The position numbers and the translations under genes are program-made. The notes under the pieces are model-generated. The model saw only the letters and a program-made list of their open reading frames with translations, had not been told where the DNA came from and searched no databases. Shown in pieces: positions 15,430 to 27,902 of a DNA stretch of 64,000 bases. Numbering within the stretch: the first letter of the stretch is position 1; the number at the start of each line of letters is the position of its first letter. This DNA is from Escherichia coli (GTDB lineage Bacteria > Pseudomonadota > Gammaproteobacteria > Enterobacterales > Enterobacteriaceae). The stretch lies in NCBI RefSeq assembly GCF_046105845.1, contig NZ_CP151004.1. One strand, written 5' to 3'.

Positions 15430-17106
15430 ATGCATCACGCCACCCCGCTTATCACCACCATTGTTGGCGGCCTTGTGCTCGCCTTTATCCTCGGCATGCT
15501 GGCCAATAAACTACGTATTTCTCCTCTGGTGGGATATCTGTTAGCGGGTGTGCTGGCAGGACCATTCACTCCGGGCTTTGTTGCCGATACCAAGCTTGCG
15601 CCGGAACTGGCTGAACTGGGCGTCATTCTGTTGATGTTTGGCGTGGGTCTGCACTTTTCGCTGAAGGATTTGATGGCGGTAAAGGCCATCGCCATTCCCG
15701 GCGCGATCGCCCAGATAGCCGTGGCGACGCTGCTGGGTATGGCGCTCTCCGCCGTGCTGGGCTGGTCGTTAATGACCGGTATCGTGTTCGGCTTATGCCT
15801 TTCCACCGCCAGTACCGTGGTGTTACTGCGCGCACTTGAAGAACGGCAATTAATAGACAGTCAGCGTGGGCAAATCGCCATCGGTTGGTTGATTGTGGAA
15901 GACCTGGTAATGGTTCTGACGCTGGTGTTGCTGCCCGCAGTGGCAGGAATGATGGAACAAGGCGATGTGGGCTTTGCCACTCTTGCTGTCGATATGGGGA
16001 TCACCATCGGCAAGGTGATCGCATTTATCGCCATTATGATGCTGGTAGGTCGCCGTCTGGTGCCGTGGATTATGGCACGCAGCGCAGCAACCGGTTCCCG
16101 TGAGCTGTTTACCCTGTCGGTGCTGGCGCTGGCGTTAGGGATTGCCTTTGGTGCGGTGGAGCTGTTTGATGTCTCCTTTGCACTCGGTGCGTTCTTTGCC
16201 GGGATGGTACTGAACGAGTCTGAACTGAGTCACCGTGCCGCCCACGATACGCTGCCATTGCGCGATGCGTTTGCGGTGCTGTTTTTTGTCTCCGTCGGGA
16301 TGTTGTTTGATCCGTTAATTCTGATTCAGCAACCGCTGGCAGTGCTGGCGACGCTGGCAATTATTCTGTTTGGTAAATCGGTCGCGGCACTGTTCCTTGT
16401 GCGTCTGTTTGGTCACTCCCAGCGCACGGCGTTAACCATCGCCGCCAGCCTTGCGCAGATTGGTGAGTTCGCATTTATCCTGGCGGGACTGGGAATGGCA
16501 TTGAATTTACTGCCGCAGGCCGGACAAAACCTGGTACTGGCAGGGGCGATTTTGTCGATTATGCTCAACCCGGTCCTGTTTGCGCTGCTGGAGAAATATC
16601 TGGCGAAGACCGAAACGCTGGAAGAGCAGACGCTGGAAGAGGCTATCGAAGAAGAGAAGCAGATCCCAGTGGATATTTGCAACCATGCGCTACTGGTAGG
16701 TTACGGTCGTGTAGGCAGCCTGCTGGGGGAGAAATTGCTCGCCTCTGATATTCCGCTGGTGGTGATTGAGACGTCACGAACCCGTGTTGATGAACTGCGA
16801 GAGCGCGGGGTCCGCGCAGTATTGGGCAATGCGGCGAACGAAGAAATTATGCAACTGGCGCATCTGGAATGTGCAAAATGGCTGATCCTGACGATTCCCA
16901 ACGGTTATGAAGCGGGCGAGATTGTGGCGTCTGCCCGCGCGAAAAATCCGGATATTGAGATTATCGCCCGCGCCCATTATGACGATGAAGTGGCGTATAT
17001 CACCGAACGTGGCGCGAATCAGGTAGTGATGGGTGAGCGTGAAATTGCTCGTACTATGCTGGAACTGCTGGAAACACCACCGGCGGGTGAAGTGGTGACG
17101 GGGTAA
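15430..17106 (+). CDS. ybaL: CPA2-family cation/proton antiporter with C-terminal TrkA-N domain
   Basis: 558-aa ORF: membrane domain plus Rossmann-type GYGRVG motif. Confidence 0.92.
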   Translation: MHHATPLITTIVGGLVLAFILGMLANKLRISPLVGYLLAGVLAGPFTPGFVADTKLAPELAELGVILLMFGVGLHFSLKDLMAVKAIAIPGAIAQIAVATLLGMALSAVLGWSLMTGIVFGLCLSTASTVVLLRALEERQLIDSQRGQIAIGWLIVEDLVMVLTLVLLPAVAGMMEQGDVGFATLAVDMGITIGKVIAFIAIMMLVGRRLVPWIMARSAATGSRELFTLSVLALALGIAFGAVELFDVSFALGAFFAGMVLNESELSHRAAHDTLPLRDAFAVLFFVSVGMLFDPLILIQQPLAVLATLAIILFGKSVAALFLVRLFGHSQRTALTIAASLAQIGEFAFILAGLGMALNLLPQAGQNLVLAGAILSIMLNPVLFALLEKYLAKTETLEEQTLEEAIEEEKQIPVDICNHALLVGYGRVGSLLGEKLLASDIPLVVIETSRTRVDELRERGVRAVLGNAANEEIMQLAHLECAKWLILTIPNGYEAGEIVASARAKNPDIEIIARAHYDDEVAYITERGANQVVMGEREIARTMLELLETPPAGEVVTG

Positions 17107-17111
17107 ACGGT

Positions 17112-17914
<803 letters not shown>

Positions 17915-18018
17915 ATCAGCATACTTGTCCTTAGCCTTCTGCAGTGACAGCTGGTAGTACAGCGTGCTTCTGGCCAGCCCTGCAGCCTTTAACAGGTCAG
18001 ACTGGCAGTGTCCGCACC

Positions 18019-18549
18019 TCAGGCTCCGGATGACTTTCGTTTTTTCTCCAGCTCCTGGCGCTTTTTTTCCAGGAGATGCTCCTGCATGGCTTTCAGATAT
18101 GCATTTTCTGCGCGAAGATAACGCAGCTCATTCTTCATCTCTTCCGGCGTCATGTTTGCCTCGTTTTCATGGGTATCATCAGAACGGGTCATGCTTTTCT
18201 CCTTCCTGCGCCTGATAAAGGCCTCATTACCAGATTTGCGGTAGCCTTTTATCCAGTTTTTAACCGTGTTGTGGCTGGGAATGTTAAACCGGGCAGCTAC
18301 CCGGGGTAGAGACTCAGAATGCCCGAGAGCATAAAGAACCACGCAAAGTTTATCTTCAGGAGAATAGCTACGCTTGTGTCTGCAATCCAGTGCCCGAGGA
18401 CCGTGAAGAAGAAAAAGATTAATCCAGTGTGAGAGGCTGGTGTGAGAAAGTTGAAAGAGTTTTGCCGTAGAAATGATGCCTGCATGACCAGCCAGGTAAT
18501 GATTTACAGCGGCAAGTTTTACTTCAAATGAATGTTTCATAAACTGCAC
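18019..18549 (-). CDS. IS3-family transposase OrfA (HTH plus leucine zipper)
   Basis: 176-aa ORF; C-terminal heptad leucines (LRYLRAENAYLKAMQEHLLEKKRQELEKK). Confidence 0.85.
   Translation of the reverse strand: MQFMKHSFEVKLAAVNHYLAGHAGIISTAKLFQLSHTSLSHWINLFLLHGPRALDCRHKRSYSPEDKLCVVLYALGHSESLPRVAARFNIPSHNTVKNWIKGYRKSGNEAFIRRRKEKSMTRSDDTHENEANMTPEEMKNELRYLRAENAYLKAMQEHLLEKKRQELEKKRKSSGA
18061..18067 (-). other. A AAA AAG programmed -1 frameshift motif at the end of IS orfA
   Basis: Minus strand reads CTG GAA AAA AAG CGC in the orfA frame, the classical IS3-family slippery heptamer. Confidence 0.6.
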
Positions 18550-18591
18550 CTTCAGATGTCAGATTATGTCCAACATTTGGGGTGCAGTTCA

Positions 18592-18654
18592 GCCATCGCA
18601 TCAGGCATTGAGAGCAAAATGCCAGATGCGGCGTGAACGCCTTATCTGGCCTAC
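18592..18654. repeat. REP/BIME sequences: right half of the interrupted REP plus a second REP
   Basis: gccatcgcatcaggc completes the interrupted palindrome; gccagatgcggcgtgaacgccttatctggcctac (18621-18654) matches the REP consensus. Confidence 0.6.
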
Positions 18655-18668
18655 GAACCGACGATAAC

Positions 18669-19973
18669 TTAACGATCCCAGTAAGACTCTTCCAGGCTGT
18701 CTTCACGCTCCGGCAAGCCGCGCGTTAAACGAGGTGAATGCTGGTTCAGTACCTGATAGCTCACACGGTTAGCATATTTACACACCTGCGCTAACGATGA
18801 ATAAGTTAACCAGGTGAATTTATGTTTGCTGGAGTTTGGTACGTTGCTACGGTGGTAGCTGTTGGCGGTAATATCATGCAGCAACGCTGCCAATGCGCCA
18901 TCCCCTGCTCCGTTAGTGTTCATGATTTTTTCCGGCCCGCCCATGTACGGCGCAATGTGCGAATAGACACGCAGCGGATTCTGGCAATCCTTGTGGCGCA
19001 TGGCGCGGCTAAACTCATACTGGTTAAATTCCGCTATAGCGCCCGGCAGCAGTGGATGCTGGGTTTTACGTTTCGCTTCGTCTTCAGTAAAGCCCGCCAT
19101 ATACAAGCCGATTGGCCCGGCGGTGCACAGCACCAGATCAACCCAGTCCAGCGCCTTGTCAGATGCCAACAACGGATCGCTTTCTCCGGTCAACGCTTCG
19201 GCCTCATCTTCGTTCATCGCAAGGATAGAGACGTGATCTTTGAGGAATTGCTGCCACCACTGCGGATTCTCGGCAATGACAAACTTGGTGCCCAGCGTCA
19301 GCACCACCGGTACGTTATATTTCTTCGCGTACTCAATGGCTTTCATGGTTGCTTCCGGCATGGGTTCACCCGGCTTGCAACGCACCAGATAAGAAGTGAG
19401 AACCAGTGCCGAGGCTCCGGCAATCACATCTTCCGGAATACTTTCAGCCCGCAGCTGGTTCATGTGGCCAGGGCTGATAGCAAAGGTACGTTCCCCGGAC
19501 TCGCCAATCAGCGTAAAGCAACGACCAATCGGGCCATCCACGCCTTGTAGATAGTTAAGATCGGTACGGCTGGAGGTGTTACACAGGTAACGATAGGCAT
19601 AGCTGCCAATTTCAATATTGCTGCACATGACGCCCAGCAGCACCGAACGGTCGTCCGCGAGCACCGAGTAGTTGTGCATAGTGTTACCAATGGTGCCACC
19701 CGCAAATTGATGGGTAATCAGGTTTTTCTGTTTTAGTTCCTGATAAAGCGCTTCGGCTACGTCATCCTCAATCACCAGTGAATGCCCGGCGCTTAATCCA
19801 TAACGCTCAATGAATTCGTCATCCACTTTCGCTTCAATATCGACCAGCGTTTGATCGATACCCACTACCCAGGCGGCGCTGGTTTCGTTTTCTGGCTGGA
19901 ATTGCTGAAGCAGCGGATCGCGTGCATTTACAGGGAAGTAATGTTTGGATTTACGTTTGCCGGGAAATTTCAT
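18669..19973 (-). CDS. gsk: Inosine-guanosine kinase
   Basis: 434-aa ORF matching recalled Gsk. Confidence 0.95.
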   Translation of the reverse strand: MKFPGKRKSKHYFPVNARDPLLQQFQPENETSAAWVVGIDQTLVDIEAKVDDEFIERYGLSAGHSLVIEDDVAEALYQELKQKNLITHQFAGGTIGNTMHNYSVLADDRSVLLGVMCSNIEIGSYAYRYLCNTSSRTDLNYLQGVDGPIGRCFTLIGESGERTFAISPGHMNQLRAESIPEDVIAGASALVLTSYLVRCKPGEPMPEATMKAIEYAKKYNVPVVLTLGTKFVIAENPQWWQQFLKDHVSILAMNEDEAEALTGESDPLLASDKALDWVDLVLCTAGPIGLYMAGFTEDEAKRKTQHPLLPGAIAEFNQYEFSRAMRHKDCQNPLRVYSHIAPYMGGPEKIMNTNGAGDGALAALLHDITANSYHRSNVPNSSKHKFTWLTYSSLAQVCKYANRVSYQVLNQHSPRLTRGLPEREDSLEESYWDR

Positions 19974-25970: not shown

Positions 25971-27902
25971 TCAAATGGGGCGGATACTTTCTTCATCCAG
26001 CTCCGCATCGAAGAACCGACGCAGGGTCTGAATATTATTATCCGCAATAATGGACTCGCGCGCCTGCGCAAGTTTTTCTTCGTATATCGCCTGACGCCAT
26101 TCCAGCGGCGTACGCACCGCGGGATTATCATCTTCAACGATAGTCAGTTCAACCGTTGAACCTTTTAACGTGCTCAACGCTTCAGCCAGTTTTTGCTGTG
26201 CACCGCGGTTGTTCAAATGCCGCTGAGAGGAGCGCAAATGCAGACATACTGCGTTGTCGCTCTCCTCTTTCCAGGCATTTAGCGCCACCTGTTCGACCAG
26301 TTTTGGTAGCGAAAGTTGGCTCACCTGTGCCGCCCACGGGTCGCGCTCAATGGCTTCTGCCGCCAGCTTCGCCGCCAGTTCCGGCGTTTTTTCATGTTCC
26401 AGCGCTTTTTTTAGCGCCTTCGGCGTGGCGACCACTTCTTTTTGCTGCATCACTGGAGTGGTGGCCTTCCAGCGATACGCTTCTTTTTTGGCTGGCGCTT
26501 TTTCCAGCGCCGATGGCACCGGGCGCGCCTGAACGCGATCGGTGACCGAAGCCAGTCTTTCCAGCGCAGCGTTATTCACCGGCCGCGCGCGGGTAGCGGC
26601 TGCCGGTTCACTCTTTTTTGCTTTGGTTGCTCCCTGCACGCGCTGCAACTGCTGGCGCGCCGCCAGCACCTGGCTGGTGGTTTCCGGGAGCGGTACAGTC
26701 GGTGCCTGCTGCGGCGCTGATTGCGGTTGCGGCGGCACCTGTGTTGGCGTCATTACTGCCGTTGGCGCGACGGGCGCAAAGGACTGGCGTGGCACTTCTG
26801 GCTCAGGCAGCGGCATACGCGGATGGAACGCCAGCGCGCGAAGCAGCGTCATCTCAACGCCCATACGGCGGTCTGGCGCATACGGTAATTCTTTGCGACC
26901 AATCAACAGCGTCTGATAGTAAAGCTGAATATCCGTCGGCGGTATGGTGCGCGCCAGTTCACGCATCCGCAGCTCGATGGCAGCCATGTCGTTGCCAAGT
27001 GCAGCAGGCGAAAGTTGTACCATCGCAATACGATGCAACAGACCGAGCATTTCCACCAGCAACGCTTCCCACTCGATACCACGGGCAGCGGCTTCATTAA
27101 TCAGCGCCATTACGCGCTCGCCGTTGGCCTCGACCATCGCTTCAACCAGCGACAGCGCCTGATCGTCGTCAAGCGTACCCAGCATCGCACTGACCGCCTG
27201 AGTTGAAACCTGGCCGTCACCGCTGGCAATCGCCTGGTCGGTCAGACTTAAGGCATCTCGCAGGCTGCCTTCAGCGGCGCGTGCCAGCAATTGCAGCGCC
27301 CGCGGCTCGTGAGCGATATGTTCTTCGTTGAGGATGTGCTCAAGCTGATGGCGAATTTGCTCGACATCCAGCGCCTTGAGATGAAATTGCAGACAACGTG
27401 ACAAAATCGTCACCGGCAATTTCTGCGGATCGGTCGTCGCCAGCAGAAACTTAACGTGCTCCGGCGGCTCTTCAAGGGTTTTTAACAGTGCGTTAAAGCT
27501 GTGGCGCGACAGCATATGCACTTCGTCGATCAAATAAACTTTGAAACGACCACGCGCCGGAGCGTACTGGACGTTATCCAGCAGGTCGCGGGTATCTTCA
27601 ACTTTGGTGCGCGAGGCGGCGTCGATTTCAATCAGATCGACAAAGCGCCCCTGCTCGATTTCACGACAGTTATCGCACACGCCGCACGGCGTCGCGGTAA
27701 TGCCGGTTTCGCAGTTTAGCCCCTTCGCCAGCAGTCGGGCGATAGAGGTTTTTCCGACGCCACGGGTACCGGAAAAAAGATAAGCATGATGAATACGCCC
27801 TAACGACAAGCCGTTCGCCAGTGCGGTCAGCACATGTTCCTGGCCGACGACGTCAGCAAAGGTTTGTGGGCGCCATTTTCGGGCTAAGACCTGATAACTC
27901 AT
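25971..27902 (-). CDS. dnaX: DNA polymerase III subunits tau and gamma
   Basis: 643-aa ORF with AAA+ motifs (GTRGVGKT) and internal frameshift site. Confidence 0.97.
   Translation of the reverse strand: MSYQVLARKWRPQTFADVVGQEHVLTALANGLSLGRIHHAYLFSGTRGVGKTSIARLLAKGLNCETGITATPCGVCDNCREIEQGRFVDLIEIDAASRTKVEDTRDLLDNVQYAPARGRFKVYLIDEVHMLSRHSFNALLKTLEEPPEHVKFLLATTDPQKLPVTILSRCLQFHLKALDVEQIRHQLEHILNEEHIAHEPRALQLLARAAEGSLRDALSLTDQAIASGDGQVSTQAVSAMLGTLDDDQALSLVEAMVEANGERVMALINEAAARGIEWEALLVEMLGLLHRIAMVQLSPAALGNDMAAIELRMRELARTIPPTDIQLYYQTLLIGRKELPYAPDRRMGVEMTLLRALAFHPRMPLPEPEVPRQSFAPVAPTAVMTPTQVPPQPQSAPQQAPTVPLPETTSQVLAARQQLQRVQGATKAKKSEPAAATRARPVNNAALERLASVTDRVQARPVPSALEKAPAKKEAYRWKATTPVMQQKEVVATPKALKKALEHEKTPELAAKLAAEAIERDPWAAQVSQLSLPKLVEQVALNAWKEESDNAVCLHLRSSQRHLNNRGAQQKLAEALSTLKGSTVELTIVEDDNPAVRTPLEWRQAIYEEKLAQARESIIADNNIQTLRRFFDAELDEESIRPI
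26613..26619 (-). other. dnaX: dnaX programmed -1 frameshift site (A AAA AAG) producing gamma
   Basis: Minus strand reads GCAGGGAGCAACCAAAGCAAAAAAGAGTGAACCGGCAGCC...: SD-like AGGGAG upstream, heptamer, then a stem-loop; the -1 frame stops at GAG TGA. Confidence 0.85.

Follow-up and report, generated by a model that had tools for sequence, protein, structure and literature searches.

Insertion sequences of the IS3 family are approximately 1.2–1.6 kb long, have TG...CA inverted repeats and overlapping orfA and orfB genes, and duplicate 3–4 bp of their target. For IS150, frameshifting at A AAA AAG has been established experimentally (Vogele et al. 1991, as referenced in PMC4066793). The survey of Sharma et al. 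2014 (NAR, Tables S4/S8; PMC4066793) includes a cluster named A_AAA_AAG_5, 'Fam IS3/grpIS150/IS1397', in which the SD frequency and the hairpin frequency are both 1.00 and the hairpin is 38 nt long, with a 3-nt spacer and a first stem of 4 bp; -1 programmed ribosomal frameshifting (PRF) of this IS1397 cluster is described there as 'safely inferred', as opposed to demonstrated. In that survey's IS table only IS911 and IS1397 are scored Y/Y for SD and structure (PMC4066793). IS911, an IS3-group element, shares with IS1397 the A AAA AAG, an upstream SD-like sequence and a downstream structure; it belongs to another subgroup, and its stimulatory structure measures 57 nt and follows after a 6-nt spacer (PMC4066793). 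IS1397 is also known for its habit of inserting into REP sequences (palindromic units).

The DNA analysed here, a stretch of 64,000 nucleotides from an Escherichia coli genome (the window; contig NZ_CP151004.1), carries a complete IS1397 copy on its minus strand at 17160..18591 (1432 bp, with 5'-TG...CA-3' ends). It matches annotated IS1397 copies over 1432/1432 bp with 99.9% identity, and RefSeq labels the matching copies 'IS3-like element IS1397 family transposase, programmed frameshift'. Nucleotide identity above 95% is the usual ISfinder convention for the same element, and by this sequence measure the element is IS1397, of the IS150 group of the IS3 family. A single base, 17699, separates it from the E. 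coli 042 copy, and the difference falls at the third position of a CGA/CGG codon, where it is apparently synonymous. The ends read TGAACTG...CAGTTCA; end-to-end comparison places the left terminal inverted repeat, which is imperfect and about 25 bp long, at 18567..18591 (-) and the right one at 17160..17184 (-), and the two match at positions 1-7, 9-16 and 20-25. The length, the TG...CA ends, the overlapping ORFs with orfB in the -1 frame, the in-phase A6G motif and the DDE and HTH domains are all those of an IS3 family member. The element is common in the species: 3496 of 5426 complete E. coli genomes contain some part of IS1397 and 1707 contain a near-complete copy, copies with at least 80% coverage number 1711 records, and many E. 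coli copies are annotated as pseudogenes.

The insertion is intergenic, with gsk (18669..19973, minus strand) on one side and ybaL (15430..17106, plus strand) on the other, and it occupies the loop of a REP palindrome of the Z type. Put together, its flanks give GCCTGATGCGA-TGGC-GCGTCTTATCAGGC, a REP insertion typical of IS1397, and TGGC stands on both sides, at 18592..18595 (-) inside the REP/PU palindrome and at 17156..17159 (-). When the element and one TGGC are subtracted, the site becomes the uninterrupted intergenic region that is found in one piece in 4659 genomes; IS1397 occupies this gsk/ybaL spot in only 34 of the 5426 complete E. coli genomes, and these match the window at 99.2%. 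The empty site (L094, 150-153) reads GACGCGCCAGCGTCGCATC, and the window's REP half next to the left IS end (18592-18598) is without the 3 nt GCG. Because these bases are missing beside the left TGGC, the 4-bp target duplication is apparent and not established to the base; either the insertion hit a REP variant that was already shorter, or it was accompanied or followed by a small deletion. A second REP adjoins the insertion, where sub-threshold Rfam naRNA4 matches lie at 18591-18651, and the REP-flank regions as a whole extend over 17120-17159 and 18592-18660. An Rfam search of 17100..18700 in E-value mode returned no frameshift-element family, only the sub-threshold naRNA4 on the flanking REP and noise.

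The orfA gene occupies 18019..18540 (-), from an ATG at 18540 to a TGA at 18021..18019, and encodes 173 amino acids. OrfA has an HTH DNA-binding part, with Pfam matches to HTH_28 (9e-18) and HTH_Tnp_1 (1.7e-8), and a leucine-zipper-like C-terminus (LRYLRAENAYLKAMQEHLLEKK). The orfB-frame part of OrfAB, at 17192..18061 (-), has 289 codons and a stop, and contains HTH_21 (1.3e-17) and the rve core (rve 1.3e-21, rve_2 6.1e-21); the catalytic triad in OrfAB is D295/D355/E391, with spacings of 60 and 36, and K398 stands at E+7. The initial annotation had taken this gene pair for the standard IS3 family arrangement for making an OrfAB transposase, and the HTH domains, rve, the DDE triad and the 'programmed frameshift' label of the RefSeq copies all bear that out. 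A protein search with the OrfAB fusion was dominated by 120 IS1397 clusters that are almost identical to one another, and yielded no diversity; the clusters carry the name 'IS3-like element IS1397 family transposase' or 'IS3 family transposase', almost every one is 449 aa long, and in nearly all of them the frames are joined at the heptamer site. Five other proteins of 420-620 aa (P0132, P0133, P0150, P0173 and P0175) match the OrfA N-terminal HTH (roughly residues 4-118) repeatedly, in 4-5 stretches that lie in tandem and have 24-30% identity, and from their sequences look like multi-copy OrfA-like HTH arrays.

In the orfA frame the minus strand reads CTG GAA AAA AAG CGC at 18072..18058, so that an A AAA AAG heptamer occupies 18061..18067 (-) in the X XXY YYZ phase of orfA, 39 nt from the orfA stop. 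The heptamer that had been reported there from the letters of the DNA, in the orfA frame and near the end of orfA, is thus correct to the base. The -1 (orfB) frame is free of stop codons from 18127 down to the stop at 17194..17192 on the minus strand, and both frames are open over an overlap of 109 nt. The first orfB start in the ORF listing is a GTG at 17914, and the frame is open upstream of it; an orfB-frame stop between the heptamer and 17914, which would have contradicted the initial reading, is absent, and none occurs beyond 17914 before the stop at 17194..17192. Translation of the -1 frame across the heptamer gives one unbroken OrfAB of 449 aa. Bare AAAAAAG is frequent in the window, with 23 copies on both strands where 13.9 +/- 3.5 are expected, so its presence alone says little, and it is the phase and the place in the 109-nt overlap that count; by our own arithmetic the chance of an in-phase heptamer in the overlap is about 0.007 (~36 positions x ~1.8e-4 per position).

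Two further signals flank the heptamer. An SD-like AGGAG lies at 18079..18083 (-), 11 nt upstream of the heptamer's first base and 12 nt before its second base, which fits the SD rule of Sharma et al. 2014 (PMC4066793). Of the window's 23 AAAAAAG sites only two, the IS1397 site and that in dnaX, have an SD-like element 10-11 nt upstream. The downstream stem-loop that the initial annotation had suggested looking for is also present: a predicted stimulatory hairpin of 38 nt at 18020..18057 (-), separated from the heptamer by a 3-nt spacer (CGC). CAGG pairs with CCUG in its closing stem, an internal loop (AG/AG) follows, and a second stem, CUGGAGA/UC-UCCGG, carries a loop of 11 nt. Its minimum free energy is -12.4 kcal/mol (z -3.43, with 2 of 200 shuffles as good), and it is also present in longer folds. 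Longer windows of 102 nt and 111 nt give insignificant folding z values of -0.86 and -1.29, the 38-47-nt hairpin alone being conspicuous. When the 23 AAAAAAG sites are ordered by the raw energy of the downstream fold, the IS1397 site comes only 8th. The survey's rule for IS3 hairpins asks that the hairpin measure 17-140 nt, start 4-10 nt downstream of the motif with a G-C pair and three or more additional pairs, and have an unfolding free energy of at least 7.6 kcal/mol (PMC4066793). The IS1397 hairpin fits this rule in length (38 nt), in its C-G start, in its 4 pairs and in its 12.4 kcal/mol, and its 3-nt spacer is one short; the survey's authors themselves give the IS1397 spacer as 3 and score the hairpin as present (PMC4066793). 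Our independent values for the hairpin, SD-like sequence and heptamer agree with every figure given there for IS1397, and the same heptamer, SD-like sequence, hairpin and REP insertion are found as in the described element (RefSeq; A_AAA_AAG_5, PMC4066793), with no difference of substance. The match to the survey, together with the RefSeq annotation, means that the IS1397 site is already known. A literature search that did not include the original IS1397 papers found no direct IS1397 frameshifting experiment, and IS1397 frameshifting is seemingly still without direct experimental proof.

We note that the 3' arm of the hairpin (CCUG, 18020-18023) overlaps the orfA stop UGA (18021-18019), so non-shifting ribosomes would have to melt the predicted hairpin before terminating. 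A widespread IS1397 variant, present in L090 from E. coli UPEC129 and in some 1050 further records, departs from this copy at two to three points of the frameshift window, CTCCTGG to CTTCTGG, TCCGG to TCCAG (by which a U-G of the hairpin becomes U-A) and GGTGCGG to GGTACGG; the L090 copy of this variant is annotated as a frameshifted pseudogene.

The window contains its own positive control. The A AAA AAG at 26613..26619 (-) lies inside the ORF at 25971-27902 (-), whose 643-aa product begins MSYQVLARKWRPQTF, and it is the classical E. coli dnaX tau/gamma -1 frameshift site. Like the IS1397 site it combines A AAA AAG with an upstream GGAG (10 nt away) and a stem-loop a few nt downstream. The two differ in outcome, since the dnaX shift leads to an early stop and a shorter protein (gamma), whereas the IS1397 shift extends the product into the catalytic domain. 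The 48-nt fold after the heptamer is stronger in dnaX (-19.7 vs -14.6 kcal/mol in IS1397), and the dnaX hairpin begins about 6 nt after the heptamer, as read from the fold, against 3 nt in IS1397.

A scan of species-representative genomes gave 80 loci that were kept; a single partial IS1397 copy of E. coli aside, their OrfB identities are 50-58%. Represented among them are Bacillota, Pseudomonadota (Enterobacterales including Klebsiella, and Burkholderiales), Bacteroidota and others, and the Klebsiella element, L016, is probably ISKpn1. Intermediates of 60-95% identity were found neither in plasmids nor among these 80 loci. In nearly all of the 80 the stretch shared by orfA and orfB contains A AAA AAG or A AAA AAA in the orfA phase. 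Alignment of 60 distinct frameshift windows (59 from relatives, and IS1397) has the consensus GGAGAATGCCTAYTT AAAAAAG TTGAATGCCTTAGTTCA...TGAAYTAAGGCAT, and 36 of the 60 have a GGAG that likewise lies 11 nt upstream. A 13-bp helix is formed by columns 27-39 with 90-102, and in the relatives it starts 4-6 nt after the motif; its columns are 89% paired, compared with 23-42% when the partners are slid by 1-3 columns. Compensatory changes affecting both sides occur at 6 pairs, one of which is G-C in 26 windows, A-U in 16 and G-U in 16, and the covariation score of the helix was reached by no shuffle; both arms are also coding, so this conservation partly reflects the proteins. The IS150-group relatives thus resemble IS1397 in the orfA/orfB layout, the in-phase A AAA AAG, a helix and, in most, GGAG 11 nt upstream, and they differ in slipping on the codons of AYL-KK and in having a loop of ~50 nt as against 11 nt in IS1397.

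The position of the slip site is where IS1397 parts from these relatives. In the OrfA alignment the slippery Lys-Lys lies at ...ENAYL-KK-L.AL... in 18 of 18 aligned relatives, whereas IS1397 OrfA reads ...ENAYLKAMQEHLLE-KK-RQ..., with AYLKA at the old position and KK 9 codons later. The nucleotides homologous to the relatives' heptamer, 18088..18094 (-), are G AAA GCC (Y-L-K-A; the context is CTG AAA GCC at 18096..18088), and are not slippery. Since this region of OrfA is equal in nucleotide length, the slip site itself has been displaced, by 27 nt (9 codons) downstream. A 27-column gap in the MAFFT alignment, in which the IS1397 A-runs were mismatched, was rejected as an artefact of that alignment by the equal length seen in the OrfA protein alignment. 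The moved site is common to IS1397 and four other elements of 46-57% OrfA identity, L085, a plasmid copy of Pantoea sp. SO10 whose OrfA tail is DYLKVMQEIILEKK, and L089, L092 and L093, which are contigs from public sequencing-run assemblies (Logan). We describe this subclade by the OrfA pattern AYLK[AVTG].Q..L.EKK and the DNA pattern CAGGAGNNNNNNNNNNNAAAAAAAGCGCC. The other sampled relatives (59 distinct windows, and 89 OrfA cluster representatives in a regex screen) keep the old site.

Within the subclade A AAA AAG CGC CRG G is kept, in phase, in 5 of 5 members, and CAGGAG stands 11 nt upstream in 4 of 5. The hairpin architecture varies. In IS1397, L092 and L093, a CCUG at +38..+41 (in the Leu codon of OrfB S/E-L-R) can pair with one of the two tandem CRGG motifs that directly follow the heptamer; in L089 and L085 no more than 3 of the 5 pairs of that CCUG/CRGG register are kept. 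Two pairing registers are each partly compatible with the five members and neither is decisive, no clean case of covariation for IS1397's own stem was found among the five, and the region downstream of the heptamer in the Pantoea relative L085 is not more structured than shuffles (z +0.46); with five sequences and two possible registers, the comparison is not proof of the hairpin. We consider it likely that in the IS1397 lineage the whole cassette moved, in that the AYL-KK site was lost and an in-phase A AAA AAG arose 27 nt downstream together with new stimulators. A new AGGAG would have formed at the unchanged 11-nt upstream spacing, and a new 5' hairpin arm would pair with a 3' arm that has stayed on its OrfB codons (S/E-L-R); with a new 5' arm and an unmoved 3' arm, the loop would have shrunk from ~50 nt to 11 nt. 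No earlier description of the moved slip site of the IS1397 subclade was found, and it may be undescribed.

Taken with the phase, the open frames and the flanking signals, the heptamer at 18061..18067 is very probably, as judged from sequence, the programmed -1 ribosomal frameshift site of IS1397. Most ribosomes on orfA would pass the site and stop at the UGA at 18021..18019, giving the 173-aa OrfA. A fraction would pause with two tRNA-Lys on AAA AAG, probably because 16S rRNA pairs with the AGGAG that lies 11 nt upstream and because the 38-nt hairpin begins 3 nt downstream. Each tRNA-Lys would then re-pair one base back (AAA AAA), and reading would go on in the orfB frame. The product of this tandem slippage (...LLEKK|APGAGEK...) would be the 449-aa OrfAB, with the junction ...LLEKK-APGAGEKTKVIRSLR... 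joining the HTH/zipper part to the DDE core; the ratio of OrfA to OrfAB would be set in this way, and transposition thereby limited. From these signals we infer both the shift by ribosomes, whatever its efficiency, and its stimulation by the SD-like sequence and the hairpin.

An improbable alternative is transcriptional slippage, in which the polymerase would stutter on the A7 run (18068..18062) and add one A, so that OrfAB would be made without any ribosomal slip. The A7 run is kept in 5 of 5 members of the IS1397 subclade, and seven is the minimum reported as sufficient for transcriptional slippage in the IS3 family element IS1447. The A8 transcript would encode an identical protein (LEKKAPG), so by our reasoning protein data would read the same for transcriptional as for ribosomal slippage. 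Nine A, however, is the length usually quoted for transcriptional slippage, and the relatives with the canonical site have only A6 (TT AAAAAA G) and yet hold to the strict X XXY YYZ phase, with a last base of G or A. Such strict phase is not needed by a polymerase and so argues against slippage during transcription, and the SD-like sequence and hairpin are signals directed at the ribosome.

If ribosomes do shift, a still less probable reading makes A AAA AAG incidental and places most of the shifting at another point of the 109-nt overlap, above all at the second A-rich stretch, G AAA AAA C (18046..18040). The G AAA AAA (18040..18046, minus strand) shares the orfA phase and lies in the overlap ahead of the orfA stop, and by our own arithmetic either A-rich site would yield a fusion of equal length. 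It is an imperfect heptamer, however, as its first base is G, which prevents full re-pairing of the P-site tRNA; the stretch falls within the loop of the predicted hairpin, and there is no structure at the right distance downstream of it. It is also not kept in the subclade (L085 has GAG AAA AAG CCG and L093 has GAG AAA AAG CAA), in which A AAA AAG is found in 5 of 5 members, and G AAA AAA is unlikely as the main slip site. Hardly credible is the reading in which the element is decaying, its heptamer arose by chance, nothing is recoded and OrfB is made from an internal start or not at all: AAAAAAG is frequent in the window and pseudogene annotations are many among E. coli copies, but this copy has intact ends, an intact orfA and a stop-free orfB frame with its one apparently synonymous difference from E. 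coli 042, the motif is kept in phase across phyla, there is no ATG or SD near the opening of orfB, and a start at GTG 17914 would lose ~50 residues homologous to relatives, which align from query residue 2-7.

Ribosomal slippage on A AAA AAG also bears on the reference protein of IS1397. The heptamer predicts the junction KKA-PGAG, whereas 108 of the 120 database clusters have KKP-PGAG. A different heptamer behind this frequent KKP junction was ruled out, as the DNA is identical to that of the window, and the position of the pipeline's join explains it. The RefSeq/PGAP join (window 18060-18061, minus strand; also in L082-L084) re-reads the C one base 3' of the heptamer, and a join drawn 1 nt past the heptamer gives Pro instead of Ala at residue 161. 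Pro161 of the IS1397 reference protein is thus probably an artefact.

The IS1397 site represents the usual IS3 family way of dosing transposase, and in this respect adds little that is new; with the classical dnaX site in the same window, it indicates that a sequence scan picks out real recoding sites. The moved site, if it is undescribed, would be a natural case of a recoding signal rebuilt piecewise without breaking the gene, and so a small evolutionary curiosity that bears on the modularity of frameshift cassettes.
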